In this document: positions 2,592-59,897 of the stretch, piece by piece
Layout: each line of letters begins with the position of its first letter
Position numbering within the stretch: the stretch's first letter is position 1
Assembly (NCBI GenBank): GCA_045127535.1
Contig: JBGVQN010000009.1
Span: 54,786-118,785 of the forward strand
Direction of reading: 5' to 3'
From: Lachnospiraceae bacterium
GTDB taxonomy: Bacteria; Bacillota; Clostridia; Lachnospirales; Lachnospiraceae
DNA: 64,000 nt
Translations under genes and position numbers: made by a program
Notes under the pieces: generated by a model
The model's input: only the letters and a program-made list of their open reading frames with translations
What the model was told of the DNA's origin: nothing
Databases searched by the model: none

Positions 2592-3431
2592 ATGAATTTT
2601 AAAGTAGCAATTTTACAAAAACGTTCCGTTGACAGGGAAATGGATCGAAATACCGATACCATCATTGCCAATATGGTGCTTGCTGCAGAAGAAAAAGCAG
2701 ACATTCTGCTGATACCGGAGTGTTTCATTACAGGATATGAATTGCCAATAGACAATCAGGATGCACTGACAGACAACTGTACATACATAGACAGGCTGTG
2801 TGCTGCTGCAAAGCAGTATCATATCGGTGTAGTGGCAACTGCCTTGACACAGGGAGCAGAGAAACCCCAGAATTCTGCTTATGTGATCGATCAGGACGGA
2901 CAGGTTTTGATGAAGTATTCTAAGGTCCACACCTGCGATTTTGCAGATGAGCGCTGCTTGGAAAGCGGCAGTGAATTTAAGGTCTGCGATTTTCATGGAG
3001 TGAAGTTAGGCATTATGATCTGCTATGACAGAGAGTATCCGGAAAGTGCCAGGGTACTGATGATGAAAGGGGCTGAGATCATTCTGGTGCCCAATGACTG
3101 CGGCGCTATGAAGCCCAGAATCCAGGCTCTTTCCACACGTGCATATGAAAATATGGTAGGTATCGCAATGGCAAATCCAAATGGAGCCAATGCAGGTAAT
3201 TCCTGTGCCTATAGCCCCATCTGCTGGGACAGAGATGGAATGTGTGTAGACAATACCATCCTGCTGGCAGATGATATGACAGAAGGCTTGTATTATGCAG
3301 AGTTTGATATGGATGAGCTTCGTGTATACCGGGAGCGGGAGATGATGGGGAATACATTCCGTAAGGTGAAAGCGTATGCGGAGCTGATGGGTACGGATAT
3401 TGGGTATCCATTTGTGAGAGAGGGGCAGTAA
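2592..3431 (+). CDS. carbon-nitrogen hydrolase family protein (nitrilase/amidase superfamily)
   Basis: The Glu (IPECF), Lys and Cys (ICYDREYPE) catalytic-triad context typical of CN hydrolases is present. An RBS, GGAGG, lies before the ATG at 2592. Confidence 0.75.
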   Translation: MNFKVAILQKRSVDREMDRNTDTIIANMVLAAEEKADILLIPECFITGYELPIDNQDALTDNCTYIDRLCAAAKQYHIGVVATALTQGAEKPQNSAYVIDQDGQVLMKYSKVHTCDFADERCLESGSEFKVCDFHGVKLGIMICYDREYPESARVLMMKGAEIILVPNDCGAMKPRIQALSTRAYENMVGIAMANPNGANAGNSCAYSPICWDRDGMCVDNTILLADDMTEGLYYAEFDMDELRVYREREMMGNTFRKVKAYAELMGTDIGYPFVREGQ

Positions 3432-3943
3432 GGTGTGACTGAACAGGTTGCAGCGTCAGGGCGTCAGTGTTCTCATTGACAAAAAGAATAGGAGATGCTA
3501 GAATAACGCTATCTGAAAAACGTTTGCAAGAGTCCTGTGTGAAATGATTCTGATACGGAGGCTCTTGCAATTGCGTGATATGATCTGACGGAGAGAGGTG
3601 AAAAGATGAGAAGATAATTTGCTTTTTGTGTACATGAAGATCGATAGCAGTATGGGTAAACATGCGCATACTGTTTCATCATGTTGCCAAAAGTGGATTA
3701 TGTTCTCATAACCTCTCTTTTTGTGTGCAGAAATGGATGAAAAGTGATGATGGTGCTATCATTCTTTTCTGAATATGAGGTGGTAGGATGTAATGGAACT
3801 GTTTGGCAGCAAATGGTTCCTGTTTTTGTTTATGGATCAGGAGCCGGCACTCTGCTTGTGAAGCAGAGAAATGGTAAATGTGTTACCAGGTAATGTGTTT
3901 CACAATTACCTGAAAGAGGTTACAGCAGATAGGAGAAAACCGT

Positions 3944-4744
3944 ATGAAAAATATTTTTATAGAAGGAATTCAGGGAATGGGCAAGTCCACCTTATTGAAT
4001 CGTATTGCTGCAGAACTGCCGGAATTACATGTGTGCAGAGAGGGAGATTATTCGCCCATTGAGCTGGCCTGGTGTGCATGGATGACAGAGGCAGAATATG
4101 ATCAGATGCTGGATTGCTATGAATCTATCCGTGAAGACATCATACAAAATACTGTTAGAGAAGGAAATCACTATATTGTTTCCTACACCAGGATCATTAC
4201 AGATGTGCCAAACTTCCACAGAGAACTGGAGAAATTTGAAATATACAATGGCAGAAGGACATTGCAGGAGCTGGAAAAAATCGTGCTTTCCAGATATGAG
4301 GGGTTTACGCAAAATGGGTATCTGTTTGAATGTGCATTTTTCCAGAATATCATAGAGGACTTGATTTTATTCCACCAGTTGGGGGATGATGAGATCGCAG
4401 CATTTTATAAAAGACTATACAGCAAAGTGAAGAAAGAAGATTTCCTGTTGCTGTATCTGTATGAGGATGGGATAGAGGATAATATAAAGATTATCCAAAA
4501 GGAGCGTTGTGACCAGCAGGGACAGGAGTTGTGGTATCCGCTGATGCTGCAGTATTTGATCAATTCGCCTTATGGAAAGCAGCAGGGGTATTGTGGCTTT
4601 GCAGATATGATCACCCATTTCCGACACAGACAGGAGCTGGAGCTGCGCATCATCCGTGAGATCATTGGAGACCATGCAGTGATCCTTCCGGCGAAGCAAT
4701 GGGACATGGATGCAATCCTGGCATTGATAAAATCAGGCAATTGA
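3944..4744 (+). CDS. P-loop NTPase, putative (deoxy)nucleoside/small-molecule kinase
   Basis: The N-terminus carries a Walker A, GIQGMGKST. The protein is 266 aa with no other recognisable motif. An RBS, AGGAGAAAA, precedes the ATG. Confidence 0.45.
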   Translation: MKNIFIEGIQGMGKSTLLNRIAAELPELHVCREGDYSPIELAWCAWMTEAEYDQMLDCYESIREDIIQNTVREGNHYIVSYTRIITDVPNFHRELEKFEIYNGRRTLQELEKIVLSRYEGFTQNGYLFECAFFQNIIEDLILFHQLGDDEIAAFYKRLYSKVKKEDFLLLYLYEDGIEDNIKIIQKERCDQQGQELWYPLMLQYLINSPYGKQQGYCGFADMITHFRHRQELELRIIREIIGDHAVILPAKQWDMDAILALIKSGN

Positions 4745-5130
4745 GAAATGCATGAACAGACACTTCGCAAAGCTGATATTAAGCATACTTTTGCAATTGC
4801 CTATTGATAAAATAAAAGGAGGAAGCAGGTTTTGCTGCGCAAAACGTTGCAGTACCTGCCAAAATGCACTTGTATATGAAAAAATCCTTCGTTATAATAC
4901 TCATATATGAATTGCAGATCTGAAACAAGGTCAATGCAGGGCATTTTGAAGTCTGAGAAGTTGGAACCTTTGGGATAGGTGAGGAATATGGCAAAAAAGA
5001 AAAGAGAGCATATGGTGTTTGATCAAATGTGGAAGCAGAAAAAAAAGCATTCCCTTTTCTGTAGTGAACAAACAAAGTGCCAAAAAGAAACAGATAAATG
5101 ATATATTGAAAACAAGGCATAGGAGTGAGT

Positions 5131-6638: not shown

Positions 6639-7130
6639 ATGAAATACCATAATATTACCAAAGACGATATGTTAAATGGAGATGGTCTGCGCACAGTGCT
6701 GTGGGTGTCCGGCTGCACCCACAGATGCCCAGGCTGTCACAATCCTATGACTTGGGACATTCAGGATGGGCTGCAGTTTGACCAGACTGCAAAAGCAGAA
6801 CTGTTTGCAGCCTTAGACAAGGAGTATATTTCCGGTGTCACATTCAGCGGCGGAGACCCCCTCCATCCGGATAACCGGCAGGAGATTGGAGAACTGATTG
6901 GAGAGATCTGCAGCACATTTCCAGACAAAACCATCTGGGTGTATACTGGCTATCGGTGGGAAGACTTGCAGGAGCTTGGATATTTGGAAAACATAGATGT
7001 ATTGGTAGATGGTGTGTTCATACAGGCGCAAAAGGACAATACCCTTATGTGGAGGGGCAGTGCCAATCAGCGTGTGATCGATGTGAAAAAAAGTCTGGCA
7101 GAGCAGAAAGTGATCCTGCACTGCCAGTAA
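6639..7130 (+). CDS. nrdG: anaerobic ribonucleoside-triphosphate reductase activating protein-like radical SAM enzyme (NrdG family)
   Basis: The N-terminus YHNITKDDMLNGDGLRTVLWVSGCTHRCPGCHNP carries the CxxxCxxC cluster and the size expected of NrdG. No nrdD gene is adjacent. Confidence 0.7.
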   Translation: MKYHNITKDDMLNGDGLRTVLWVSGCTHRCPGCHNPMTWDIQDGLQFDQTAKAELFAALDKEYISGVTFSGGDPLHPDNRQEIGELIGEICSTFPDKTIWVYTGYRWEDLQELGYLENIDVLVDGVFIQAQKDNTLMWRGSANQRVIDVKKSLAEQKVILHCQ

Positions 7131-7618: not shown

Positions 7619-7708
7619 AGGGAATTGCGAAATATAGTTATTGTAATGAATGCTTTAAAAACACAAATACTTCCCAAAGCTGATACGGACGCTGGTTTCG
7701 CAATGTCC
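7619..7708 (-). repeat. MITE-like palindromic intergenic repeat, minimal copy
   Basis: The termini are GGAATTGCGAA ... GGTTTCGCAATGTCC. The internal ACTTCCCAAAGCTGATA matches the TIR of the full copies. Confidence 0.6.
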
Positions 7709-7734
7709 TATTGGGATGTGCAGCAAGAGTAGTA

Positions 7735-8367: not shown

Positions 8368-8805
8368 TGCAACCTCCTATACATACAGAGAAAATGACAC
8401 AGACACCCATGCCCCTTTCACTGTGTAATTCAAAACAATAGAAACCCCAAAAAAGGATCCTCTACTGCATTCCAAAACCATAAAAAGCCTGACAACTACA
8501 CACACTCACCAGACTCCACCCAATATCATACCATGTCTGCCCCCGTTTGTGTAAAAAAAATGCAGGCTTGTGCAAGGAATCTCTATTGTCAGACAGTGCC
8601 AGATTCGTTTATAATAATATCAAAATACAAGCATATGGAATCTGACATAGGATACTCCTGATACACCGGTGAGACCTCATGACACATCCAATGTCAGCAT
8701 TTTTAGAGATTTCGGGCATACTTACCGGCTAAAGCAAAACGTGTCCAGTGAAAAACAATTACCCCAGCCCGTAAGTCCGTTCTAAATCTCCTAAAGTGCA
8801 TCCAT

Positions 8806-9026
8806 AGACAATTATGAAACGATATTCAAAATCAGCTTTGGGAAGTATCTGCAAGCAAATATTTGCTAAGCAGGACTCTTGAAAACGCCGGCACTTTAAA
8901 TTTTGTGCTGTAGGCACAAAATTTATTAGTACCGCTGCGTTTTCACCGAAGCGAGAGCGTGTCCTGCGTGCAAATATTTGCTTGCAGATACTTCCCAAAG
9001 CGTCCGGTACCGAGTTGTGCAATTGC
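8806..9026 (+). repeat. MITE-like palindromic intergenic repeat, full copy
   Basis: Left TIR, CAATTATGAAACGATATTCAAAATCAGCTTTGGGAAGTATCTGCAAGCAAATATTTGC. Core, TAAGCAGGACTCTTGAAAACGCCGGCACTTTAAATTTTGTGCTGTAGGCACAAAATTTATTAGTACCGCTGCGTTTTCACCGAAGCGAGAGCG. Right TIR, ...GCAAATATTTGCTTGCAGATACTTCCCAAAGCGTCCGGTACCGAGTTGTGCAATTGCC. Confidence 0.8.
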
Positions 9027-9058
9027 CTGTCCATATGCCAAAATGAAAGGAGAAAAAT

Positions 9059-15661: not shown

Positions 15662-15730
15662 TGATCCTGAAAATGTCCGGTAATGTGTTTCACAATTGCC
15701 TAATCCTTTATTAAAGTGAAAGGAAACAAC

Positions 15731-36029: not shown

Positions 36030-36305
36030 ACAGTCACATCTAAGGAAAGGTGATGAAGCAGAGGAGTACTGTTTGGAGGCGGACAGAGAGGTGGCCGGAT
36101 GTTGAGAGGCCATTACGTACAGAAGGATAGGAAGGTAGCTGCTGAACTGGATTTTTGAACGGCAAGACTCATTAGAGAATCCCGGTTAGTCCCCGTTATC
36201 GGTCACAAGGGAATCGGAGCAGCAGCTCCCGTTCTGAAATGAAGGTGGTACCGTGCATATGCGCCCTTTATGGAGATCATTCCATAAAGGGCTTTTTTAT
36301 TTTAT
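36030..36305 (+). ncRNA. T-box riboswitch leader (tRNA-Val-responsive) with terminator
   Basis: The T-box sequence AATGAAGGTGGTACCGTG is at 36238-36255. A terminator, GCGCCCTTTATGGA...TCCATAAAGGGC followed by TTTTTTATTTT, comes next. The position upstream of valS fits. Confidence 0.7.
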
Positions 36306-36491: not shown

Positions 36492-39143
36492 ATGGAGGAT
36501 ATGATGAAAGAATTAGAAAAAACATACAGCCCTGCTGATATAGAGGAGCGTCTGTATGAAAAGTGGTTGGACAAAAAGTATTTTCACGCAGAAGTAGATA
36601 GAAGCAAGAAGCCATTTACCATTGTAATGCCGCCGCCAAATGTAACCGGTCAGCTGCACATGGGTCATGCATTGGACAACACCATGCAGGACATTCTCTG
36701 CCGTTATAAGAGAATGCAGGGGTATAACGTATTATGGCAGCCAGGTACAGACCATGCAGCCATTGCCACAGAGGTAAAGGTCATTGACAAGCTGAAAAAA
36801 GAAGGCATTGATAAGAATGACATTGGACGTGAGAAGTTTTTAGAGCATGCCTGGGAGTGGAAGCGTGAGTACGGCGGAAGAATCATCAACCAGTTAAAGA
36901 AGTTAGGTTCTTCTGCAGACTGGGACAGAGAGCGTTTTACCATGGACGAGGGCTGCTCCAAGGCAGTAGAGGAAGTCTTTATCCGTCTGTATGAAAAAGG
37001 CTGGATCTACAAAGGCTCCCGTATCGTAAACTGGTGTCCTGTATGTAAGACCTCCATTTCTGATGCAGAGGTAGAGCATACAGAGCAGGCAGGCCATTTC
37101 TGGCATATTAAGTACCCGATCGTAGGGGAGGAAGGCAGATTCGTAGAGATCGCCACCACCAGACCGGAGACCATGCTTGGAGATACTGCAGTGGCAGTCA
37201 ATCCGGAGGATGACCGTTACAAGGATATCGTAGGCAAGATGCTGCTGCTGCCTCTGGTCAACAAGGAGATCCCGGTAGTGGCAGATCCATATGTAGACAA
37301 AGAGTTTGGAACCGGTTGTGTCAAGATCACCCCAGCCCATGATCCTAACGACTTTGAAGTAGGAAAGCGTCACAGCCTGCCGGAGATCAACATCATGAAT
37401 GATGATGCCACCATCAACAATCACGGCGGTAAATATGCAGGCATGGATCGTTACGAGGCAAGAAAGCTGATCGTACAGGAATTAGATGAGCTGGGCTTAC
37501 TGGTAAAGATCGAAGACCACGTACACAATGTAGGTACCCATGACCGTTGTAAGACCACCATTGAGCCACTGATCAAGCAGCAGTGGTTTGTAAAGATGGA
37601 TGAGATGATCAAGCCTGCTGTAGAGGCAGTAAAGTCCGGTGAGATCAAGCTGCTGCCGGAGCGCATGGACCGTACTTACTTTAACTGGACAGACAACATC
37701 CGTGACTGGTGTATTTCCAGACAGCTGTGGTGGGGACACAGGATCCCGGCTTACTATTGTAAGGATTGTGGTGAAATGGTTGTGTCCAGAGACGCAGTGA
37801 CGGTATGCCCTAAGTGCGGCAGCGTACACATGGAGCAGGATCCGGATACATTGGACACCTGGTTTTCTTCTGCACTGTGGCCATTCTCCACATTGGGCTG
37901 GCCGGAGCAGACAGAGGATCTGGATTACTTCTATCCGACAGACGTACTGGTAACCGGCTATGATATTATCTTCTTCTGGGTCATCCGTATGATCTTCTCC
38001 GGCTATGAGCAGACCGGTAAGGCGCCGTTCCATACGGTACTGTTCCATGGTCTGGTCAGAGACTCTCAGGGACGTAAGATGAGTAAGTCTCTGGGCAATG
38101 GTATCGATCCATTAGAGGTCATTGATAAATATGGTGCAGATGCCCTGCGTCTCACCCTGATTACCGGTAATGCACCAGGTAATGACATGCGTTTCTACTG
38201 GGAGAGAGTAGAAGCATCCCGTAACTTTGCCAACAAGCTGTGGAACGCATCCCGTTTCATTATGATGAACATGGAAAAGGCATCCTCAGACAATGTCACT
38301 CTGGCAGATCTGACCAACGCAGACAAGTGGATTCTGTCCAAGGCAAACCGTCTTGCCAAGGAAGTGACTGAAAATATGGACAAGTATGAAATGGGTATTG
38401 CTGTACAAAAGGTTTACGATTTTGTATGGGAAGAATTCTGCGACTGGTATATCGAGATGGTAAAGCCACGTCTGTGGAATGCAGAGGACAAGACCCAGGC
38501 AGCTGCCATCTGGACATTAAAGACTGTCCTGATCCAGTCCTTAAAGCTGCTGCACCCATTCATTCCATTTATTACAGAGGAGATCTTCTGCAACCTGCAG
38601 GATGCAGAGGAATCCATTATGATCTCTGAATGGCCGCAGTTCCAGAATGCATGGGACTTCGCCCAGGAGGAAAATGCAGTAGAGACCATCAAGGAAGCAG
38701 TACGCAGCATCCGTGCAGTACGTCTGTCCATGAATGTACCACCAAGCAAAAAGGCTACCATCTATGTAGTCAGCGAGCAGGACAAGGTACGTGAGATCTT
38801 TGAGACCTCCAAGGTATTCTTTGCACAGCTTGGTTCTGCAAGTGAGGTACTGGTACAGGCTGATAAGACCGGCATCGGGGAAGATGCAGTCTCTGCTGTG
38901 ACAGCAGATGCAGTGCTGTATATGCCTCTGGCAGAGCTGGTTGACATCTCCAAGGAGATCGAGCGCCTGCAGAAGGAAGCAGAAAAGCTGACCAAGGAGC
39001 TGGCACGTTCCAAGGGCATGTTAAGCAATGAGAAGTTTATCAGCAAGGCACCTGCTGCCAAGATCGCAGAGGAACAGGAGAAGCTGGCACGCTACGAAGC
39101 AATGATGGCCCAGGTACAGGAGAGACTGGAGGCACTGCAGTAA
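36492..39143 (+). CDS. valS: valine--tRNA ligase
   Basis: The class I HIGH motif PPNVTGQLHMGHA, KMSKS, and a C-terminal coiled coil. Alternative starts lie at 36501 and 36504. Confidence 0.9.
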   Translation: MEDMMKELEKTYSPADIEERLYEKWLDKKYFHAEVDRSKKPFTIVMPPPNVTGQLHMGHALDNTMQDILCRYKRMQGYNVLWQPGTDHAAIATEVKVIDKLKKEGIDKNDIGREKFLEHAWEWKREYGGRIINQLKKLGSSADWDRERFTMDEGCSKAVEEVFIRLYEKGWIYKGSRIVNWCPVCKTSISDAEVEHTEQAGHFWHIKYPIVGEEGRFVEIATTRPETMLGDTAVAVNPEDDRYKDIVGKMLLLPLVNKEIPVVADPYVDKEFGTGCVKITPAHDPNDFEVGKRHSLPEINIMNDDATINNHGGKYAGMDRYEARKLIVQELDELGLLVKIEDHVHNVGTHDRCKTTIEPLIKQQWFVKMDEMIKPAVEAVKSGEIKLLPERMDRTYFNWTDNIRDWCISRQLWWGHRIPAYYCKDCGEMVVSRDAVTVCPKCGSVHMEQDPDTLDTWFSSALWPFSTLGWPEQTEDLDYFYPTDVLVTGYDIIFFWVIRMIFSGYEQTGKAPFHTVLFHGLVRDSQGRKMSKSLGNGIDPLEVIDKYGADALRLTLITGNAPGNDMRFYWERVEASRNFANKLWNASRFIMMNMEKASSDNVTLADLTNADKWILSKANRLAKEVTENMDKYEMGIAVQKVYDFVWEEFCDWYIEMVKPRLWNAEDKTQAAAIWTLKTVLIQSLKLLHPFIPFITEEIFCNLQDAEESIMISEWPQFQNAWDFAQEENAVETIKEAVRSIRAVRLSMNVPPSKKATIYVVSEQDKVREIFETSKVFFAQLGSASEVLVQADKTGIGEDAVSAVTADAVLYMPLAELVDISKEIERLQKEAEKLTKELARSKGMLSNEKFISKAPAAKIAEEQEKLARYEAMMAQVQERLEALQ

Positions 39144-39158: not shown

Positions 39159-39360
39159 CGACTACCCGGACGGAGTTAGCCAGACTGGATGCATTTGCAC
39201 GCAAAACACGCTCTCGCTTCGGGAAGTACGCAGCGGTTCTAAGGCCGCAGACAGGCAAAATCAGTCGTAAGTAAACTTACGGCTGATTTCACCTGTCTGC
39301 GGCCTAAGAACCGGCGTCCTTCAGAGTTTTGTTTAGCAAAGGCAGCCAGCCTGGCTAACT
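39159..39360 (-). repeat. diverged variant of the repeat family containing a ~75-nt near-perfect palindrome
   Basis: CGCTCTCGCTTCGG...CGCAGCGG matches the reverse-complement core. Its own TIRs are GGAGTTAGCCAGACTGG and CCAGCCTGGCTAACTCC. The internal hairpin spans 39236-39311. Confidence 0.55.
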
Positions 39361-39633
39361 CCTGGGTATTGGTAAATCTCCAGGTGTATTTGTAAATGTG
39401 GAATGTGGTCGACTTAGCAGGAAACTGGTTGCTGCAGAGTGCAAAGTATATTTGCAAGCATGGAAATGCGTCTATGCGGGCAAGGCCTGTGAGCTGGTGC
39501 ATAAAGTGGACTGCAGTGTAGCATGGCAGTTGTGAATAAGAAGGTAGGGAAGCAGGTTTTCACGGGGGATTCGTATAAATGCGGAGCGTGGAGATCTGCT
39601 TTTTATATCGATGTTTTACAGAGTGTCAGGGAA

Positions 39634-39904
39634 GGTGTTTTGCAATCGACTATTCTCATATTTGAACAATAACGAAAGTCTGCTACGTATCAGCTTTGTG
39701 AAGTGCCTGTCAGAAAATGTTTTCTAAGCAGGCTCTTAAAAACGCCGGCACTTTAAATTTTGCACCGTAGGTGCAAAATTTATTAGTACCGCTGGGTTTT
39801 TACCGAAGCGAGAGCATGCAAACGTATCATAAATGATACGTCGCGTGCAAACATTTTCTGACAGGCACTTCACAAAGCGTCCGGTAACAAGTTGTGCAAT
39901 TGTC
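39634..39904 (+). repeat. MITE-like palindromic intergenic repeat, full copy
   Basis: It shares the core with 8806-9026. The central hairpin is TTTTGCACCGTAGGTGCAAAA. There is an extra CGTATCAT-aa-ATGATACG hairpin. The TIR reads CTTTGTGAAGTGCCTGTCAGAAAATGTTTT. Confidence 0.8.
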
Positions 39905-39930
39905 TATTTCAGATTAGTTGGAAGGAGAAG

Positions 39931-48806: not shown

Positions 48807-49092
48807 TGTGAGTCTGCCACACCTATTGTAAAGTAAGAAAATGTTCTGAAAAATCAGCTTTGTATCGAAAAAACTGATAGGGCACAAGCTTGAATGCAGA
48901 ACATCTATCCCAAAATAGGGATTCAATGAGGATAGAAGGAACAATATCAGTTGGCATTTGATCAAACGATATACAGCAGGCTCAAATGAAAGGATCATGC
49001 AATTGTGACTTACACACAGATGAGTGTAATGGTAATGAACAAGCAGATATTAAAAAACAGATACTTAAGTCTATATACAAAGGGGAGTGCAT

Positions 49093-49509
49093 ATGCGGTG
49101 GATAATACTTTGGCTGATAGGGGTGTCATCTGGACTGGTAACTTCTGCCGGTGTGTTTGCACTGATTACGGTAATTGGCATCATTCCAAGACTGGCAGGT
49201 AAGAGCCGGACAGCTTCACGTGTCCGTATTTATGAATGGGCCATCATTTTAGGCGGCGTACTTGGAAACCTGCAGTATCTTCTGGGTACGAAGCTTCCTG
49301 TGGGACAGGTGGGTCTTGGGATGTTTGGATTGGGATGCGGCATCTTTGTCAGCTGTCTGGTCATGTCTCTGGCAGAGACATTGGATGTATTCCCGATCAT
49401 GATCCGCCGAACCAGAATGAAGGTGGGACTGCCCTGGCTGGTGCTTGCATTTGCTTTGGGCAAAAGTGTAGGGGCATTTCTGTTTTTCTGGTATGGATGG
49501 CATGTGTAG
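49093..49509 (+). CDS. spoVAB: stage V sporulation protein AB
   Basis: The product appears collinear with B. subtilis SpoVAB in a by-eye comparison (VIGIIPRL..., FPIMIRR). An RBS, AGGGGAG, lies 5 nt before the ATG. Confidence 0.8.
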   Translation: MRWIILWLIGVSSGLVTSAGVFALITVIGIIPRLAGKSRTASRVRIYEWAIILGGVLGNLQYLLGTKLPVGQVGLGMFGLGCGIFVSCLVMSLAETLDVFPIMIRRTRMKVGLPWLVLAFALGKSVGAFLFFWYGWHV

Positions 49510-49545
49510 GCTGGTCTGATTAATAGATTAAGGTGATTTAAGAAT

Positions 49546-49590
49546 CAGACACTTCACAAAGCGTCCAGTAACGTGTTTTTCGTAATTGTC
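49546..49590 (+). repeat. solo right-terminus fragment of the repeat
   Basis: CAGACACTTCACAAAGCGTCCAGTAACGTGTTTTTCGTAATTGTC. Confidence 0.6.
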
Positions 49591-49623
49591 TATAAAAAAT
49601 AATATAATGAGAGGAGACACAGT

Positions 49624-50094
49624 ATGAATCAGCAGGAAAGCAAGCAGAAGCTTGCAGAAGAATACAACGCTTACATCAAAGCAGTCACACCCACATTCAG
49701 TACAGCCAAAAATATGTTTCGGGCTTTCTGGACAGGCGGTGTGGTCTGTGTCATTGGGCAGGCACTGAACAACCTGTTTACAGGCATGGGGCTGGAGAAA
49801 AAGGATGCGTCTGCCTGGACATTGCTGGTGCTGATCTTTGTGGCCATTGTACTGACTGGCTTTAATCTGTTCAGCAAGATTGCAAAGTATGCAGGTGCAG
49901 GCGTATTGGTGCCCATTACTGGTTTTGCCAATGGTGTGGCTTCCCCTGCCATAGAGTATAAGAAAGAGGGATGGGTGTTTGGCGTAGGCTGCAAGATCTT
50001 TACCATTGCAGGGCCGGTGATCTTGTATGGAATCATTACCAGCTGGGTGTTGGGGGTGATCTGTTGGGTGTTGCAGATGATGGGAGTGGCGTGA
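49624..50094 (+). CDS. spoVAC: stage V sporulation protein AC
   Basis: A SpoVAC/SpoVAEB-family membrane protein with GVLVPITGFANGVASPAIEYKKEG. An RBS, GAGAGGAG, precedes the start. Confidence 0.8.
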   Translation: MNQQESKQKLAEEYNAYIKAVTPTFSTAKNMFRAFWTGGVVCVIGQALNNLFTGMGLEKKDASAWTLLVLIFVAIVLTGFNLFSKIAKYAGAGVLVPITGFANGVASPAIEYKKEGWVFGVGCKIFTIAGPVILYGIITSWVLGVICWVLQMMGVA

Positions 50095-50402
50095 GGCTAC
50101 TCCTGTTTGCGTTTGCTGGTACATTTTTGGGGCATTATACAGCATAAATACAAAACAAAATGGCTCAAAAATATAAAATAAAACACATCAAAAAACCGGA
50201 TTTGCTGATGGTAATTACTGGTGGCAATATGGCATATACGAGACCGGATGGTGTGAAGATCATACCAATCGGGTGTCTGAAAGACTAGTAACAGGACAGA
50301 GGGAACTGGGTAAAATACGGAAAATGTGAAAAATGCAGAAAAAGTCGCTCATCTTTTTGTGATATACTTCAAAAAGTCGCTCATTTTTTTGTATATTGTA
50401 TA

Positions 50403-50508
50403 GGTAATTGCGGAACGGTATTCCATATCAGATTTGAGAAGTATTTGTAAGAAAATATTTTCTTACAGATACTTCTCAAAGCGTCCGTTCAGATGTTTCG
50501 TAATTACC
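50403..50508 (+). repeat. core-less copy of the repeat (left and right TIR fused into one long hairpin)
   Basis: GGTAATTGCGGAACGGTATTCCATATCAGATTTGAGAAGTATTTGTAAGAAAATATTTTCTTACAGATACTTCTCAAAGCGTCCGTTCAGATGTTTCGTAATTACC. The central 42 nt form a perfect palindrome. Confidence 0.75.
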
Positions 50509-51015
50509 TAATATTGTATAAAGAAGGGAGTGTGCGTATGGGCGAAATATATTTAAAACGTAAAGTGAATACGTTTTTGCTGAAGGATTATTTGAATGAA
50601 CCATAACTGCCTACAAGCCGTAGGCTGTATGAGATTGTATCTGTTAGCGGTTGCAGTTTTTATGAAAGACATGGCTTGCATAGAGCAGAAATGGCTGGTG
50701 GAGCTTGGCAAAAATGAATGATGTGCAGAAAAAATATAGATAAATGGTATTTTTTACAAAATTGTGCTATAATGAAAAAGGGTCATATATGAGCTATTTT
50801 GGTTCAAAAAGCAAAAAAAGGATAATATATTATCCTTATCAGCAGGAGGAAATATGTTTGAGCAGCTGAAATTTCCTAGTGAAATTGCAAAAGATGTTGC
50901 TGTAAAAGAAAAAAATGTCCATTTTAAAAAGATATAAAAATTTGTAGAGAACATAGGATCGTATTGATTGAAATGGAATCAATGAACCGACTAAAAAATG
51001 ATTTAAAAATGTTTT

Positions 51016-51160
51016 GACAAAAAATCCGTAAGATGCTATATTGTTTTTAGTTCAATAAGAGTCTGCCACCGGGTAGAAGATGCCAAAAGCATCCGTAAAC
51101 GTATCGTTAGGTCTGAGAAGATACGTTACGGATGCTTTTTTAGAGAAATCCTGCCAGGAG
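51016..51160 (+). promoter_or_regulatory. promoter plus structured leader with intrinsic terminator upstream of pnuC (candidate riboswitch/attenuator)
   Basis: TTGACA, 17 nt, then TATATT. A leader follows in which the small hairpin GATGC-caaaa-GCATC overlaps the left arm of a 17-bp terminator stem, GCATCCGTAAACGTATC...GATACGTTACGGATGC, followed by TTTTTT. Confidence 0.4.
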
Positions 51161-51197
51161 CGCTGCATGAAATATATTTCAGGAGTTGGAGGTAATT

Positions 51198-51884
51198 ATG
51201 CATATTGTGAAATCATTTCAGAATCTGAACAGATTAGAGAGGGGGTTATGGATCAGCTCGGTACTGGTATTGGTGATATCCTTTGGAATGAGCCCGAATC
51301 AGGATTATCTGACTCTGACAGCATCTTTGATTGGAGTAACTGCTTTGATATTTGTATCCAAAGGAGATGTACTGGGGCAGATGCTGACAGTTGGATTCAG
51401 CCTTTTTTATGCTGTGATTTCCTGGCGGTTCCGATATTATGGAGAAATGATTACGTATCTGTGTATGACAACACCCATTGCATTATTGTCAGTCATTACC
51501 TGGCTGCGCAATCCCTATTCCGAGCAAGAGGTAAAAGTGAATCATCTGACAAGCAAAATATGGGGCATATTGCTTGTATCTGCGGTATTGGTAACAGCAG
51601 TCTTTTATTGGATTTTAAAAGCCTTTGATACACCAAATCTGTTTTTCAGTACGGCTTCCATTGCCACCAGCTTTCTGGCTTCTGGTCTGATGATGCTGCG
51701 CAGTCCTTATTATGCAGTGGCATATGCGGCCAATGACATTGTACTGATTATATTGTGGGTTTTGGCAGCTGTTTCTGATATAATATATTTGCCAATGGTG
51801 CTGTGTTTTGGAATGTTTCTGCTCAATGATCTGTATGGATTTGTGAACTGGAACCGAATGAAGTGCAGGCAGCAGATGGAATAA
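51198..51884 (+). CDS. pnuC: nicotinamide riboside transporter PnuC-like
   Basis: A 7-8 TM protein of PnuC size and hydropathy. The C-terminus reads LNDLYGFVNW. The RBS GGAGG lies 5 nt before the ATG at 51198. Confidence 0.6.
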   Translation: MHIVKSFQNLNRLERGLWISSVLVLVISFGMSPNQDYLTLTASLIGVTALIFVSKGDVLGQMLTVGFSLFYAVISWRFRYYGEMITYLCMTTPIALLSVITWLRNPYSEQEVKVNHLTSKIWGILLVSAVLVTAVFYWILKAFDTPNLFFSTASIATSFLASGLMMLRSPYYAVAYAANDIVLIILWVLAAVSDIIYLPMVLCFGMFLLNDLYGFVNWNRMKCRQQME

Positions 51885-52221
51885 ACAAATAAAATGTGAG
51901 AAAGCAATTACAGCAGAGGAATGTGATTGTAAAAAATGTGAAAAAGTGTTTGCAGAATTGAAATCAGAATAAGAAAAAAAGGTGAATGGGTCTGTCAGTC
52001 TGAGAGGATTGGCAGGCTTTTTTATGCTATCTGGATAGTAAAAAAGCCGTCCTTGTATAAAAAATAGAATAGAAAGTGTGATAGGATTGAATAAAAGTGT
52101 AGAAAAAAATAAAAAGTATGCTATAATGAGAAAAAGAACATTTGTTTGGTCTGGATTATAAAAAAAGATAATTTCCACAAATAGGGTTTCTGACAGCAGG
52201 ACATAGAGATAGGAAAGAGGG

Positions 52222-52794
52222 ATGGAAATGGATTATGAAATACGCTACAGCCAACGTAAATCAGTTGGAATTGAGGTGACAAAGGAGGCAAAGGTGCTGG
52301 TCAGGGCGCCTTATGGCACATCGGTTAAGCAAATACAGTATTTTGTAGAAGCACATGCAGACTGGATCATAAAGCACAGACAAAAGGTACTGCAGCAGAT
52401 ACAGGCAGTGCAAACCAGAGAACCCATTGATGTTTTGGAGATCGAGCAGCTGGCACAGCAGGCAGCTAAGGTGATACCAGAGCGTGCTGCATATTTTGCA
52501 GGAGTCATGGGGGTTACCTATGGCAGGATCACCATACGCAATCAAAAGACCCGTTGGGGCAGCTGCAGCAGCAAAGGCAATCTGAATTTTAACTGTCTTT
52601 TGATGCTGGTACCGGCAGAGGTGTTGGATTATGTGGTAGTACATGAGCTGTGCCATCGAAAAGAGATGAATCACTCTCCCAGATTTTGGAGAGAGGTGGA
52701 GAAGGTGCTGCCCCGTTATAGAGAGCAGGAAAGATGGCTGAAGGAGCATGGCAGCACCATCATAAGGAGTGTGGACAGAAGCGGATCAGCGTAA
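52222..52794 (+). CDS. YgjP-like (DUF45/M48-related) zinc metallohydrolase
   Basis: A HELCHRKEMNHSPRFW zincin-like motif in the C-terminal half. Confidence 0.65.
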   Translation: MEMDYEIRYSQRKSVGIEVTKEAKVLVRAPYGTSVKQIQYFVEAHADWIIKHRQKVLQQIQAVQTREPIDVLEIEQLAQQAAKVIPERAAYFAGVMGVTYGRITIRNQKTRWGSCSSKGNLNFNCLLMLVPAEVLDYVVVHELCHRKEMNHSPRFWREVEKVLPRYREQERWLKEHGSTIIRSVDRSGSA

Positions 52795-52996
52795 GTAAGC
52801 CCTATGGATATAAAATAAGACCTATAGCTTTCGCGTAGAAAGAGGCTGATTACAATAAAGCAAAGAAATATTTGAAAAATTGGGTATGGCAGCTCTGATA
52901 AAGCGGGCATCAGACAGGTACATTGGCCATGAGATCTTAAAAAAGAAAGGTGCCGGGGAATAGACAGTATAAACGGATCAGGAGGAAAAGAGCAGC

Positions 52997-53419
52997 ATGC
53001 AGAAGGAAAAATTGATTTGTTGCACATATGATAAGGAAACATTGGCAGATTGCAAGTATGTTGTGGTGCTGTCCCACTATCAGGGACAGATCCTGTTAAG
53101 CAGGCATAAGGACAGAGCCACCTGGGAGACCCAGGGCGGTCATATTGAGCCAGGGGAAGCGCCCGTAGAGGCTGCAAGGCGTGAGCTGTATGAGGAATCC
53201 GGGGCTTTGGAGTATGAGCTGCAGTATCTGTGTGACTACCGGGCAGAGCATCCGGTGACCCGCAGGGGTGCCAATGGAGCAGTATTTGCAGCAGAGATCC
53301 ATACATTGGGGCCAATGCCGGAAAGTGAAATGGCAGAGGTCAGAACGTTTGATGTGCTGCCGGACAACCTGACCTATCCGGAGATCACACCGGTTTTATT
53401 TATGAAACTAGAAAGCTAG
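52997..53419 (+). CDS. NUDIX hydrolase
   Basis: A Nudix box reading GGHIEPGEAPVEAARRELYEESG. Confidence 0.75.
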   Translation: MQKEKLICCTYDKETLADCKYVVVLSHYQGQILLSRHKDRATWETQGGHIEPGEAPVEAARRELYEESGALEYELQYLCDYRAEHPVTRRGANGAVFAAEIHTLGPMPESEMAEVRTFDVLPDNLTYPEITPVLFMKLES

Positions 53420-53538
53420 GGAAAGATGCGGTTGCATGTTGGGAAAGCTGGAAAAAGGTTTTGGCGCAATGTGCAGCGTATCAGAAATGATGCCATAGAG
53501 CAAAGAAAAATCATAACGATAGAAACAGAGGAAACACA

Positions 53539-54312
53539 ATGGATGTGATAGATCAGCAGACTGCTGCAAATGCGGATGAAATTTTAGAAAAGGTATTTCG
53601 CCTGGTAGCCCTTCACAAATCAGGGGCACTTGGGGGAGAAAAGATGCCGGAGGACGAAAATCCAGGACTGGATCCGGCATCTAAGGAGAATTATATGTAC
53701 TTTACCTTACCAATGGCACTCAATTACCAGCGCAATTCTTATGTACTTTGGCAGTGTGCCAATGCAATGTACAAGGAGGCGCAGGACAGAGTGGTATTTA
53801 ACAGTGAGGCGGTTTGCAGGATGTCCATAGAGCAGCTGCGACAGATCCTGGTACAGTATAAGGTGGCACTGCAGCCCAATAAGCAGCCGGTCATTTGGCA
53901 GAAGCTGTGTGAGACCATTTCCAATCAGTTTGACGGAGATATCCGCCGCCTGTTTGTACAGCAGGGATATTCAGCTGCAGGTGTAAGAGAGTATATTGCA
54001 GGTCATAAAAAGGACTTTCCCTATTTGGGCGGCAACAAGATCTGCAATTACTGGCTGTATGTGCTGGAGCAGTATACAGATATGCGCTTTGTAGACAGGG
54101 AAGCCATTACGGTGGCACCGGATACCCATGTGATACAGGCCAGCATCCGTCTGGGGCTTTTGACGGAGGAAGAGGGCAGGCAGTCTCAGGTGCAGGTACT
54201 GGCAGCAGACAGGTGGAAAGCGCTGTTACAGGGGACCGGGCTGGTGCCCATTGATGTACATACGCCCATGTGGCTGTGGAGCAGGGGTGGATTCAAAGTG
54301 CCATTACAGTAG
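53539..54312 (+). CDS. hypothetical protein (possibly HhH-GPD/queuosine-salvage-like fold)
   Basis: A 257-aa protein with no certain motif. A helical HhH-like segment reads VAPDTHVIQASIRLGLL. Confidence 0.35.
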   Translation: MDVIDQQTAANADEILEKVFRLVALHKSGALGGEKMPEDENPGLDPASKENYMYFTLPMALNYQRNSYVLWQCANAMYKEAQDRVVFNSEAVCRMSIEQLRQILVQYKVALQPNKQPVIWQKLCETISNQFDGDIRRLFVQQGYSAAGVREYIAGHKKDFPYLGGNKICNYWLYVLEQYTDMRFVDREAITVAPDTHVIQASIRLGLLTEEEGRQSQVQVLAADRWKALLQGTGLVPIDVHTPMWLWSRGGFKVPLQ

Positions 54313-54480
54313 GTATCATTTCCATCCTGAAAAATGGAAAGGCCAAGGCGCTGAAAATATCTACTTTAGCCAAGCTGTATGCAGCGCTGGACTGCCAGCC
54401 GGGAGATCTTCTGGAATACAGAAAAAAAGAAGCAGAAAAATCAGTTTTGCAAAAATGAATTCAAGAGAAAGAGGCATAAT

Positions 54481-55233
54481 ATGACTGAACTGGAACTGAC
54501 ACAGCAGATGGCATACAGGGTAAAGGCCTGCAGCGCCATTATGTTAGAGGCCAAACATATAGAAAAGGACACCATCGCCAAAGAGGGGCGTGCCAATTTT
54601 GTAACAGCATATGACAAAAAAGTACAGGAAAGACTGTATCAGGATCTGTTAGAGCTGCTGCCGGAAGCAGAATTTCTGGGAGAAGAAGGGGAGCAGGGAC
54701 AGATCGATGTATCTAAGGGCTATGTATATATTGTAGACCCAATTGATGGCACCACCAATTTTATGAAGGGGTACCAGATGAGTGCTATTTCTGTAGCGCT
54801 GGCCAAAGATGGTCAGGTGATCTGCGGTGTAGTGTATAATCCTTATCTGGATGAACTGTTTACTGCAGCTAAGGGACAGGGGGCATTTTTAAATGGAGTC
54901 TCCATTCATGTATCCAAAGCACCATTATCAGAGGGACTGGTATTGTTTGGGACTTCCCCATATCATGAAAGCCTGGCAGAAAAGTCCTTTCAGACTGCAT
55001 ATCAATATTTTAAGCAGGCACTGGATGTGCGCAGAAGTGGTTCTGCAGCTTTGGATCTGTGCAGCATTGCAGCAGGCAGGGCAGAACTGTTTTTTGAATT
55101 GATTTTGCAGCCTTGGGATTATGCAGCTGGTTCCCTGCTGATCCAGGAAGCAGGAGGGGTGGTTACAGATATGGAGGGTAGTGAAATTATCCTGGATGGT
55201 CCATGCAGTATACTGGCAACAAATGGTGTGTAA
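54481..55233 (+). CDS. inositol monophosphatase family protein (SuhB-like)
   Basis: The IMPase motifs FLGEEG, IVDPIDGTTNF and WDYAAG. An RBS, AAAGAGG, precedes the ATG at 54481. Confidence 0.75.
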   Translation: MTELELTQQMAYRVKACSAIMLEAKHIEKDTIAKEGRANFVTAYDKKVQERLYQDLLELLPEAEFLGEEGEQGQIDVSKGYVYIVDPIDGTTNFMKGYQMSAISVALAKDGQVICGVVYNPYLDELFTAAKGQGAFLNGVSIHVSKAPLSEGLVLFGTSPYHESLAEKSFQTAYQYFKQALDVRRSGSAALDLCSIAAGRAELFFELILQPWDYAAGSLLIQEAGGVVTDMEGSEIILDGPCSILATNGV

Positions 55234-55348
55234 GGAGGAAAGGTACAATAACTTGGGATTGATTGCAGCCGGGAATTGTGATAGTATGTATACGTTGGTG
55301 TTTGTACAAGATGGAAATACCATTTATGTAGATTGGGGAGAAAATACA

Positions 55349-56704
55349 GTGAAGATTATCATTATCGGTTGTGGAAAAGTAGGCCAGACACTAGCTGTTG
55401 TGTTAAGTGAGGAAAACAATGATGTAACAGTTGTGGATCAGCAGAGAAGCAAAATGGAGGTTTTGTGTAACCAGTATAATATCATTGGTGTGGTAGGCAA
55501 TGGTGCCAGCTATGCAGTACAAAAGGAGGCAGGCGTAGAGCAGGCAGATCTGCTGATCGCAGTAACGGGTTCTGACGAACTGAATCTGTTAAGCTGTCTG
55601 ATAGCCAAGAAAGCCGGAAACTGTAATACCATAGCCAGAGTTCGTAAACCGGAATACAATGAGCAGCTGGATTTGATAAAAGAAGAATTAGGACTTGCCA
55701 TGGTTATTAATCAGGAGTGGGCTTCTGCTCAGGAAGTTTCCAGAGTGTTAAAGTTCCCTTCTGCCATTAAGATCGATACATTTGCCAAGTCCAGAGTGGA
55801 AATATTGAAATACCGGGTACCCGCTGGATCCATCCTGGCAGGAATGACCTTGGAGGAAATGCATTCCAGATTAAAGTGTAACATTCTGATCTGTGCTGCG
55901 GAGCGGGACGGCCAGGTGCGTATTCCAAAAGGTGATTATGAGATCCAGGAAAAGGATGTGATTTCTATAGTAGCTACAGCAGGAGATGCCAATGATTTCT
56001 TTAAGAAAATTGGTGTTGCTTCTGCAAAAGTGAAAAATATCATTATGGTAGGAGGCGGCGAAATAGCCTATTATCTGGCCAAAATGCTTCTGCCTCTGGG
56101 AATCCGTGTGAAAATCATTGAAAAGAATCTGTCCAGATGTGAAGAACTTGCCAGACTGCTGCCAAAAGCAACCATTATTAATGGGGATGGTACAGACAAG
56201 CAGCTACTGCTGGAAGAAGGGATTCAGGACTGTGATTCCTTTGCAGCACTGACAGATTTTGACGAAGAAAATATTTTGATTTCCCTATACTTTAAGGGGC
56301 TTGGAAAGAAAAAGTCTATTACCAAAATCAACCGCATTGCCTTTGATGAGGTAGTAAGAGAACTGGATCTGGATACCGTATTTTATCCTAAAAATATTAC
56401 AGCAGAAAATATTATACGATATGTAAGGGCTATGAAACAGTCCTTTGGCAGCAATGTGGAGACAGTTCATCGCCTGGAGAATAATGTAGAAGCCCTGGAG
56501 TTTGTGGTAGATGAAAAGGCTGATTTTACAGATATTGAGCTGCAGAAACTGTCTTTAAAGGATACCATATTGCTGGCTTACATTGGAAGAAAAGGAGAAC
56601 ATATTATACCAAGAGGTAATGATGTACTGAAAACAGGAGATACTGTGATTGTGGTGACCACCAAAACCGGTTTCCATGACATATCAGATATTTTCCAGAA
56701 GTAA
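55349..56704 (+). CDS. trkA: Trk system potassium uptake protein TrkA (two RCK/NAD-binding domains)
   Basis: VKIIIIGCGKVG is a Rossmann motif. A second one reads IIMVGGGEIAYYLA. GTG start, with the RBS GGGGAG 7 nt upstream. Confidence 0.75.
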   Translation: MKIIIIGCGKVGQTLAVVLSEENNDVTVVDQQRSKMEVLCNQYNIIGVVGNGASYAVQKEAGVEQADLLIAVTGSDELNLLSCLIAKKAGNCNTIARVRKPEYNEQLDLIKEELGLAMVINQEWASAQEVSRVLKFPSAIKIDTFAKSRVEILKYRVPAGSILAGMTLEEMHSRLKCNILICAAERDGQVRIPKGDYEIQEKDVISIVATAGDANDFFKKIGVASAKVKNIIMVGGGEIAYYLAKMLLPLGIRVKIIEKNLSRCEELARLLPKATIINGDGTDKQLLLEEGIQDCDSFAALTDFDEENILISLYFKGLGKKKSITKINRIAFDEVVRELDLDTVFYPKNITAENIIRYVRAMKQSFGSNVETVHRLENNVEALEFVVDEKADFTDIELQKLSLKDTILLAYIGRKGEHIIPRGNDVLKTGDTVIVVTTKTGFHDISDIFQK

Positions 56705-56747
56705 GAAAAAGTATGGGAAGCTCCTTTCTTTGAACGGGAACAATTTA

Positions 56748-56989
56748 GGCAATTGCGAAACTCTTTACCGGACGTTTTGCGAAGTGCTTGTCAGAAAATA
56801 TTTTCACGCGACGTATCATTTATGATACGTTTGGCGCGCTCTCGCTTCGGTAAAAACGCAGTGGTACTAATAAATTTTGCACCTGTGGCACAAAATTTAA
56901 AGTACTGGCGTTTTTAAGAGCCTGCTTAGAAAACATGTTCTGACAGACATTTCACAAAGCTGGTACGAAACCTAGTTTCGCAATTATCT
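56748..56989 (-). repeat. MITE-like palindromic intergenic repeat, full copy, reverse orientation
   Basis: It is the reverse complement of the 39634-39904 type. The termini are GGCAATTGCGAAACTC ... AGTTTCGCAATTATC. The central hairpin is TTTTGCACCTGTGGCACAAAA. Confidence 0.8.
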
Positions 56990-57120
56990 AAGCATGAACA
57001 ACAAAAGTACTCGTAGATCTTTCTCTGTGTTTATGAATAATGGGAAAGAGGACGACAAACACGGATATTCTGGAAATATGCGGCAGAAAAATACGAAGAA
57101 CCTTGAGGTTTTGGTGAACT

Positions 57121-58560
57121 ATGAATTATGGAATGATTATCTATATATTGGGATGTGTGTTGAGTTTTGAAGCAGTATTTCTGTTTCCTTCCTGCCTGGT
57201 AGCTGTCATATACAGAGAACAGGCTGGCTGGGGATGTTTTTGGGCTGCAGCATTGTGTGCGGCAGTTGGTTTTTTGCTGACCAGAAAGAGACCCAAAAAC
57301 CGGGCAATTTATGCCAAGGAAGGATTTGTGGTAGTGGCGTTCAGCTGGATTGTACTGAGTATTTTTGGCGCGCTGCCTTTTGTGTTTTCGGGCGCCATTC
57401 CTTCTATGGTAGATGCATTGTTTGAAACGGTTTCTGGTTTTACCACCACGGGAGCCAGCATTTTGTCAGATGTGGAAGCTTTGCCTAAATGTATTCAGTT
57501 TTGGCGCAGCTTTACCCACTGGATCGGCGGTATGGGTGTGCTGGTATTTGTGATGGCAGTCATCCCCCTGTCAGGAGGCAACAGTGTGTATCTGATGAAG
57601 GCAGAAAGCCCTGGCCCCAGTGTGGAAAAACTGGTGCCCAATGTAAAGCAGACTGCATTTATTTTATATGCCATGTACATTGTCATTACGGTCATTGAGT
57701 TTGTGATTCTGGTGCTGGGAAAAATGCCGGTATTTGACAGTCTGCTGCTGACCTTTGGTACAGCAGGTACCGGTGGCTTTGGCATCAAAAATGACAGTCT
57801 GGGCAGCTATACAGATTTCCAGCAGATCGTCATTACCATCTTTATGATCTTGTTTGGTATTAATTTTAATGCATATTACTTTATCTATCGAAAGAAGTGG
57901 AAAGATGCATGCCGTATGACAGAGGTCAGGGCATATCTGCTGATCATCCTCACTGCCATTGTGCTGATCAGTATGAATACCAGAGGTATGTTTGCGTCCC
58001 TGTTCCAGACTGTCAAGCACAGTGCCTTTCAGGTGGCATCCATTATTACGACCACTGGATATTCTACAGTGGATTTTGACCTGTGGCCGGCCTTTTCCAA
58101 AACCATTCTGGTCGTGTTGATGTTTATTGGGGCCTGTGCCGGAAGCACCGGCGGCGGTATGAAGGTCTCCAGATTTATCATATGGCTGAAAGCAGTTGTA
58201 AAGGAATTGGATTATGTCATCCATCCCCGCAATATTCGTCAGCTCAGTATGGATGGAAAACCCATTGAGCGGCCCACACTGCGGTCAGTCAATGTATTTT
58301 TGTTTACGTATATTTTGATATTTGCGTTGAGCCTGCTGTTGATTTCCCTGGAAAATAAGGATATGACCACCAATTTTACAGCAGTTGCAGCTACGCTGAA
58401 CAATATTGGCCCGGGACTTTCTTTGGTAGGTCCCATGGGGAACTTTGGGGTATTTTCAGACTGGTCAAAGCTGGTGCTGATCTTTGATATGCTGGCAGGC
58501 AGACTGGAGCTGTTCCCCATGCTGATTTTATTTTCACCAAACACCTGGAAAAGAAGGTAA
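57121..58560 (+). CDS. trkH: Trk system potassium transporter TrkH
   Basis: Four MPM repeats with GFTTTGAS and GTGGFG selectivity-filter-like glycines, and GGGMKVSRF. Confidence 0.85.
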   Translation: MNYGMIIYILGCVLSFEAVFLFPSCLVAVIYREQAGWGCFWAAALCAAVGFLLTRKRPKNRAIYAKEGFVVVAFSWIVLSIFGALPFVFSGAIPSMVDALFETVSGFTTTGASILSDVEALPKCIQFWRSFTHWIGGMGVLVFVMAVIPLSGGNSVYLMKAESPGPSVEKLVPNVKQTAFILYAMYIVITVIEFVILVLGKMPVFDSLLLTFGTAGTGGFGIKNDSLGSYTDFQQIVITIFMILFGINFNAYYFIYRKKWKDACRMTEVRAYLLIILTAIVLISMNTRGMFASLFQTVKHSAFQVASIITTTGYSTVDFDLWPAFSKTILVVLMFIGACAGSTGGGMKVSRFIIWLKAVVKELDYVIHPRNIRQLSMDGKPIERPTLRSVNVFLFTYILIFALSLLLISLENKDMTTNFTAVAATLNNIGPGLSLVGPMGNFGVFSDWSKLVLIFDMLAGRLELFPMLILFSPNTWKRR

Positions 58561-58651
58561 AGCCTTGCAACCGTCCGAGATGATAGAAAAGCTATAGGTA
58601 TAAGACCTGCAGCTTTCTATAGAAAACCCAAGTGATTGAGAAACGTTGGAT

Positions 58652-58693
58652 CAGACGCTTCACAAAACGTCCGTCATGTGTTTCACAATTACC
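58652..58693 (+). repeat. solo right-terminus fragment of the repeat
   Basis: CAGACGCTTCACAAAACGTCCGTCATGTGTTTCACAATTACC. Confidence 0.6.
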
Positions 58694-58708
58694 TGTGGGA
58701 ACAGTTAA

Positions 58709-58948: not shown

Positions 58949-58983
58949 TTAATGGAAAAAGTATTTGAAAGGAACAAAAGGTC

Positions 58984-59889: not shown

Positions 59890-59897
59890 TCAGTCAT

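Follow-up and report, generated by a model that had tools for sequence, protein, structure and literature searches.

Repeat copies in the window

Upstream of an aldo/keto reductase gene at 9059 of the window, the whole 64-kb stretch of DNA analysed here, lies a strongly folded intergenic repeat that recurs throughout this DNA. Besides four full copies (A to D), the window contains an empty one and five or more fragments; the elements are non-coding and 112-253 nt long, the full composite copies measuring about 225-253 nt. The features are as follows, with the strand in brackets.

8804-9030 (+): composite copy A, intergenic, upstream of the aldo/keto reductase gene (nhmmer 8792-9037; four-copy alignment A1)
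8835-8866 (+): 5' arm of the long internal stem of copy A, 100% complementary over 32 nt to 8970-9001
8970-9001 (+): 3' arm of the same stem, partner of 8835-8866
8870-8970 (+): core module of copy A, made up of P1, P2, P3 and a 3' bulge (covariance model R1, 98 bits, E 2.6e-21; nhmmer against other genomes)
8897-8925 (+): P3 of copy A, a 12-bp stem with a 5-nt loop (sequence and MFE structures)
8944-8959 (+): one-sided bulge CACCGAAGCGAGAGCG on the 3' arm of copy A, in which a GC-GAGA-GC mini-hairpin is possible (arm-versus-arm alignments)
39656-39906 (+): composite copy B, with arms 39693-39722/39849-39878, module 39727-39826, P3 39754-39782 and an extra palindrome at 39822-39841
56745-56997 (-): composite copy C, decaying, between trkA and trkH, with module 56826-56926, P3 56871-56899 and the extra palindrome at 56811-56830
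58706-58950 (+): composite copy D, between trkH and an epimerase gene, with arms 58736-58766/58893-58923, module 58771-58871, P3 58798-58826 and the extra palindrome at 58867-58886
50400-50511 (+): 'empty' outer element of 112 nt without the core, whose ends match those of the full copies and whose central palindrome, GTAAGAAAAT / ATTTTCTTAC, is unbroken
39172-39362 (-): divergent family member within another long hairpin, with module 39198-39332 (68.6 bits), a 63-nt P3, P2b CGGTTCT/AGAACCG and P1 CAAAAC/GTTTTG
61605-61712 (+): partial, degenerate module, 3' half TTAGAACC..ACCGAAGTGGGAGCG (26 bits), beside a terminator-like hairpin at 61607-61650
4738-4806 (strand not assigned): short derivative of the outer element (repeat search, nhmmer)
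7621-7713, 15667-15706, 49546-49593 and 58640-58697: solo ends or short derivatives of the outer element

The full copies are thus composites, an organisation that an earlier note on the hairpin of copy A, which treated it as the central hairpin of a repeat, had not recognised as that of a nested mobile element. The outer element ends in T(A)GGCAATTGCGAAAC on the left and GTTTCGCAATTGCCTA on the right (an end motif also given as CAATTGCGAAAC), its outer helix (helix 1 of alignment A1) is 91.7% paired, and in four of four full copies an insert of about 100-126 nt occupies the centre of the outer palindrome. TA, possibly the target duplication, stands at each end of three of the five copies; it belongs, however, to the palindromic ends themselves, and the empty sites of relatives are too diverged for nucleotide-level alignment. 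A 20-nt palindrome, ACGTATCAT-AA-ATGATACGT, further splits the 3' strand of P1 in copies B, C and D and is absent from copy A. Given that the partial copy near 61700 carries a different palindrome in the same place (ACGTGTC-CTTAC-GACACGT, 61705-61723), the 20-nt palindrome seems to be either a side stem that varies or one more nested insertion. The terminator-like hairpin at 61607-61650 (+), which has 20 bp and follows a Band_7/SPFH gene (60320-61576), abuts the degenerate 3' half of the core at that site.

Pairing within the window

In the window sequence, P3 reads TTTTGTGC-tgtag-GCACAAAA at 8901-8921 of copy A (within 8897-8925), TTTTGCAC-cgtag-GTGCAAAA in copy B (39754-39782) and TTTTGCGC-cacag-GCGCAAAA in copy D (58798-58826), so that perfect stems of 12-13 bp are present in three of the four full copies. 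The reverse complement of 56871-56899, the P3 of copy C, is TTTTGTGC-cacag-GTGCAAAA, and its arms are not complementary: TGC faces GTG, which yields T·G and G·T mismatches, or C·A and A·C on the + strand of the window, the sense strand for trkA and trkH. The earlier note had quoted all four hairpin sequences correctly, and each is found in the window, but its assertion that pairing is always preserved breaks down at copy C (56748) with these two G·T mismatches. The assertion is true only if G·U wobble is allowed on the antisense strand, and it is wrong both for DNA and for the sense transcript.

Further, P3 varies at two base pairs only, and six of six changes are CpG transitions within the GCGC of each arm, leading to GTGC or GCAC. 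Because there are two outcomes per arm, compensation has a chance expectation of one half; it is seen in two of the three mutated window copies, and the co-variation of P3 alone is therefore not significant. Whether the P3 pattern is simply chance at a hypermutable GCGC, with CpG turning into TG or CA and the two arms agreeing by luck, must be asked in light of these six transitions and of a tally, two copies compensated and one not, close to the half expected. Such an explanation nevertheless seems very improbable, as it covers only two base pairs, and neither the eight long-stem positions described next nor the co-variation between genomes, and as other CpGs of the core are invariant.

The long internal stem has arms that are 100% complementary in copy A (8835-8866/8970-9001, 32 nt; I15), copy D (58736-58766/58893-58923, 31 nt; I16) and copy B (39693-39722/39849-39878, 30 nt; I20). 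These three stems differ at eight positions, every one of them compensated and four of them by transversions. The arms had been described in the earlier note as co-varying terminal inverted repeats; the co-variation is borne out, but the arms are internal stems and the true ends, T(A)GGCAATTGCGAAAC, lie further out. In copy C, 7 of 32 positions of the long stem are unpaired (three G·T, three A·C and one transversion) and two further A·C mismatches fall in CAG/CCA of P2b, beside P3, bringing the copy to 11 uncorrected mismatches. Over the whole element, the four-copy alignment contains 14 doubly changed pairs versus 7.8±1.7 in shuffles (0 of 500) and no more than 2 in slid controls. Co-variation of the arms across the whole element is real.

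Among the copies of the window, divergence amounts to 12-25% in the long stem, 11-54% in other non-core parts and 7-13% in the core. Such a rate in the long stem is more readily explained by copying between arms, or by selection among copies that replicate, than by the stepwise compensatory evolution of an RNA.

A strand-asymmetric core shared between genomes

The P3 hairpin is the variable tip of a strand-asymmetric core of about 100 nt, with the layout P1 - UCU - (G)AAAACGY-CGGYACU - P3 - AGURCCG-[CU]-RCGUUUU - YACCGAAGCGAGAGCG - P1', where YACCGAAGCGAGAGCG is an unpaired bulge. A genome scan with the pattern GTTTTNACCGAAGCGAGAGC returned 24 loci, about 17 of them real, all in Lachnospiraceae/Clostridiales and spread over at least eight assemblies from rumen, rodent and other animal-gut samples, among them isolate NC2004 and the MAGs SRR8387717_bin.46 and RUG702. 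Different genomes have in common only the inner ~100 nt (columns 78-184 of A1, nhmmer); the outer layers are genome-specific. Among 77 loci of a metagenome scan, only L025 and L052 were real. A candidate second two-copy family, L077, was likewise discarded, being a 5535-nt soil metagenome contig that is a near-perfect palindrome over its whole length and was most likely produced as a fold-back artefact of assembly or amplification, its copies being spurious.

Covariance model R1 detects 28 forward-strand copies (23 distinct) from the window and the ~17 loci, and added no new ones. Forward-strand scores are 70-98 bits for most copies, falling to 31-68 in the four that diverge most, and reverse-strand scores reach only 13-27 bits, which makes the core strongly strand-asymmetric. 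The set is small, and given that the 28 copies (23 distinct) were gathered with a pattern fixing the 3' motif, the invariance of that motif in the main set is partly by construction. Variant bulges are GCGAAAGC (L010b, L022b), GCCGAGAGGC (outer paralogue) and GTGGGAGC (61668), and a mini-hairpin of the form GC-GAGA-GC, GC-GAAA-GC or GCC-GAGA-GGC is possible in all of the divergent copies that were found incidentally, namely L010b, L022b, L104, 39198-39332 and the outer paralogue of NC2004 and L013. When UUCG on the minus strand is compared with GNRA on the plus strand, the variants keep GNRA; the three loop changes are, however, transitions unable to break a GNRA loop, and its retention is consequently not decisive.

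The stems around this framework vary widely. P3 ranges from 4 to 31 bp, perfect or nearly so, with at least ten unrelated sequences that are always paired (for example ATGCTGC/GCAGCAT, GGTTCGT/ACGAACC, AAGCGGC/GCCGCTT and the 63-nt version at 39198-39332). Likewise, P1 is unrelated in sequence and length among the ~17 lineages and yet always paired, as in GCAGGAC/GTCCTGC, GTCGGAC/GTCCGAC, CCGGGG/CCCCGG, CAGGC/GCCTG and GCTGAC/GTCAGC. Often it extends as a perfect, copy-specific stem of 20-40 bp, even inside one genome (L010a versus L010b), and such extensions need either insertion into pre-existing hairpins or growth of the palindrome. The two copies of L010, at 3259-3530 (+) and 6930-7100 (-) of one MAG, have nearly perfect basal stems of 41 bp and 33 bp with unrelated sequences, and pose the same question of whether the core was inserted into existing hairpins or the palindromes grew outward.

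P2 co-varies as well, occurring as AAAACGC/GCGTTTT, AAAACGT/ACGTTTT, AAAACAC/GTGTTTT, GAAGACG/CGTCTTC, GCCCGT/ACGGGC and CGGTTCT/AGAACCG. Ten of its 14 pairs are doubly changed, versus 3.4±1.2 in shuffles (0 of 500) and 2-4 in slid controls, in an alignment that is model-fitted and so favours structure. When 17 lineages are tabulated and curated by hand, 13 of 19 P1/P2 positions are doubly changed, a count reached by 0 of 2000 shuffles, and 93.7% of pairs are Watson-Crick as opposed to 74.6% when the 3' halves are dealt among the lineages (again 0 of 2000).

Selection on structure might not be needed to produce such stems. Intramolecular template switching or gene conversion could make the arms identical, in which case the 'compensatory' changes would be by-products of a mutational process. 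This would agree with the three window copies whose arms of 30-32 bp show neither mismatch nor G·T, with the transversions that make up four of the eight compensated long-stem differences, with a long stem that diverges about as much as other non-core parts (unexpected for classical compensatory evolution), with P1 and P3 stems that are long, perfect and unrelated between lineages and even within one genome, and with the lack of a wobble excess on either strand. According to one study, which concerns RNA genes and single loci, replication template switching both gives rise to hairpins and maintains them (PMC8794818). Hairpins of that origin, and quasi-palindrome correction, resemble the present stems in their perfection, in parallel arm changes that include transversions and in fast stem evolution; they differ in that the dispersed repeat described here keeps asymmetric bulges that such a process should remove. 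Bulges of 10 nt and 4 nt, the CU bulge and a C·A mismatch stand on the same arm across genera although homogenisation should erase asymmetry, copy C retains its 11 mismatches uncorrected, one pair column of the NC2004 family consists of G·U (four), A-U (three) and A·C (three) with no G-C, and the sequence conservation of the core is left without explanation. As a complete account, arm homogenisation is possible but unlikely. The earlier note had raised it as an alternative, and it is viable for the outer and tip stems while offering nothing for the conserved one-sided bulges of the core.

Mobility and genomic context

Comparison with relatives fits insertion. The trkA-trkH spacer is 416 nt here versus 89-149 nt in relatives with the same gene order and TrkH 82-90% identical, and the trkH-epimerase spacer is 423 nt versus 161-199 nt in the same relatives, so that the two element-bearing spacers are some 220-330 nt longer, in what is a comparison at the species level only. 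The genes that flank copies are unrelated housekeeping genes, often of one operon (trkA and trkH, trpG and trpD, cmk and ispH), and the orientation of the copies relative to their neighbours is mixed. The repeat family also fragments assemblies of the window's species: in several samples, its short-read contigs (Logan L102, L117-L120) start or stop inside the repeats or at their edges, and contigs recovered with proteins of this species are 2-5 kb long and end at repeats.

No transposase gene lies next to any copy examined, and BLAST against plasmids and phages and a pattern scan of viral contigs gave only chance pattern matches. The part that is conserved is the middle of the hairpin and not its ends, which is unusual for a MITE recognised by a transposase. 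The elements also nest within each other: a diverged paralogue of the core surrounds the core in NC2004 and bin.46, and one element is interrupted by another in L013. A tentative and rather unlikely reading is that the core is a strand-specific structured module folding into a three-way junction (P1, the P2-P3 rod and the GC-GNRA-GC mini-hairpin), and that it serves as the cis-acting site of a putative single-strand-DNA transposase, or as a functional RNA, with a preference for hairpin tips that includes its own P3. Preferential insertion into such tips would account for the self-nesting of hairpins within hairpins, both here and in NC2004.

With respect to age, the family is older than the window's species and unevenly retained. 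In related species (those of L103 and L104, with TrkH 82-85% identical), a shortened element of the outer type lies at L103 4031-4087 and a strongly diverged core module at L104 8220-8319 (-), each at another site. Orthologous copies in NC2004 and bin.46 (L017 2944-3235 versus L023, and L015 373-662 versus L004) are 98.3% and 97.2% identical, and the flanking 300-nt windows, which are largely coding, are 83-98% identical and mostly 88-96%. The non-coding repeat is therefore more conserved than most of the neighbouring DNA, which implies that copies are constrained or homogenised in place; such conservation could instead reflect a host function.

RNA or DNA

Stems that co-vary under selection on their fold could belong to a structured RNA with a host function, such as a small RNA or an element that processes or stabilises mRNA. 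Copies inside operons would be co-transcribed, the folds are very stable (RNA folding z-scores of -13 to -15 on either strand of the element), the loop of the possible mini-hairpin stays of GNRA type (GAGA, GAAA, GGGA), and orthologous copies outdo most flanking coding DNA in conservation. The composition of the stems is nevertheless hard to reconcile with RNA. When all mismatches are scored equally, the arm-versus-arm alignments contain about 1230 Watson-Crick pairs, with isolated mismatches numbering 8 for G·T and 13 for A·C (32 and 37 in the raw counts), and a strand test for wobble excess shows no bias on either strand. Given that G·T and A·C are equally rare, nothing here points to RNA: G·U makes up less than 1% of stem pairs and is no commoner than A·C, and G·U in these stems is far rarer than in typical structured RNAs. 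Perfect duplexes of 30-40 bp are likewise atypical of functional RNAs, orientation relative to flanking genes is mixed, copy C is mismatched in the sense transcript, and the distribution among close relatives is patchy.

Searches for known RNAs and transcription signals add to these objections. At the gathering score, the only match of the window in Rfam 15 is a T-box at 36044, and in E-value mode the matches at 8780-9050 up to E = 10 are chance matches to miRNA hairpins. That T-box leader (36044-36271, +; RF00230, 101.6 bits) stands directly upstream of a valyl-tRNA synthetase gene (36492-39143), an ordinary arrangement. Within 49000-62000, a promoter and terminator scan found no promoter signal and no terminator-like site at any full copy, and intrinsic terminators were discarded as an identity for the element given that no full copy in this interval has a G+C-rich stem followed by a U tract. 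A host-functional RNA is, in sum, a doubtful and quite improbable explanation. The earlier note had proposed selection on secondary structure, RNA or cruciform, as opposed to primary sequence. A constraint on pairing is upheld by unrelated but paired P1 and P3 stems and by the doubly changed pairs of P2 (10 of 14) and P1/P2 (13 of 19), whereas a preference for RNA finds no support in stems that are essentially Watson-Crick only, in the lack of a wobble excess or in a copy that decays uncompensated.

Relation to known repeats

Among described repeats, REPINs offer a close parallel to the core. They are REP doublets that form hairpins and are mobilised by RAYT tyrosine transposases, and compensatory changes are reported to be common in their hairpins (PMC3116915). 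The phenomenon of compensated changes in a mobile repeat's hairpin is therefore already known. The elements described here are similarly short, extragenic, non-coding and multi-copy, with single decaying copies; they have two conserved inverted segments (the arms of P2) around a variable spacer (P3) that fold into a long hairpin, compensatory changes across that hairpin and an asymmetric, unpaired, conserved tail. Unlike in REPINs, the unpaired tail is ACCGAAGCGAGAGCG, with no GTAG, and CGTC is confined to the paired P2a of certain lineages, so that the core lacks the GTAG or CGTC tag of REPINs. It is also enclosed by additional long stems that are specific to the copy, or by another element, and the phylum to which Lachnospiraceae belong is not listed in a survey of REPs (PMC3733652).

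The outer element invites a different comparison. Bacterial MITEs with terminal inverted repeats flanked by TA include Correia, RUP, ERIC and bcr1, and the 112-nt outer element is like them in its terminal inverted repeats, the TA at its ends, its intergenic position, its many copies and fragments and its strongly folding interior. It is unlike them in that the part conserved between genera is an internal core and not the termini. In integron attC sites, structure but not sequence is conserved, the terminal structure is variable and extrahelical bases stand on one strand, and the present element shares a conserved structure, a variable tip and extrahelical bases on one strand. An attC identity was rejected all the same: there are no R''/R' core sites (RYYYAAC / GTTRRRY) at the base of the hairpin and no cassette array or integrase context, and the neighbours belong to housekeeping operons. 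Identities as IS200/IS605-type ends, a retron, a ribozyme or an sso were likewise set aside, as none of the motifs that define these is seen in the element. The family, its conserved asymmetric core and its self-nesting appear to be undescribed.

Interpretation and implications

The family is multi-copy, intergenic, nested and strand-asymmetric, and its pairing is conserved while its sequences differ. On balance, and with considerable room for doubt, it probably represents a nested, non-autonomous mobile repeat in which a MITE-like shell encloses a REPIN-like core and the fold is needed for copying or retention of the element. The core would have come to lie inside the central palindrome of a 112-nt MITE-like element, and the resulting composite of about 250 nt would have spread to many intergenic sites. 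The element would depend for its copying or retention on this fold, most likely adopted by single-stranded or cruciform DNA, such that only hairpin-competent lineages would leave descendants. The arms would consequently co-vary between copies, and dead copies such as that at 56748 would decay. Template switching within the palindrome may also help to make the outer and tip stems as perfect as they are.

A nested mobile repeat of this kind has several implications. The dispersed hairpin repeats of gut and rumen Firmicutes break short-read assemblies and are poorly catalogued, and hairpin repeats inside operons may affect the fate of mRNA. The family is well suited to telling apart three causes of apparent compensatory evolution, namely structural selection, replicative selection among copies and templated copying from arm to arm, and its conserved asymmetric core could lead to a mobilising enzyme. 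More broadly, co-variation in the hairpin of a repeat does not on its own constitute evidence for a functional RNA.

Finally, right outer ends of the element (GTTTCGCAATTGCCTA), at 9028, 15706, 49593, 50511, 58950 and 4806, lie about 26-40 nt upstream of + strand start codons and just before the ribosome-binding site, with distances taken by eye and without statistics; this position may reflect a preference in insertion site or an effect on the downstream gene.
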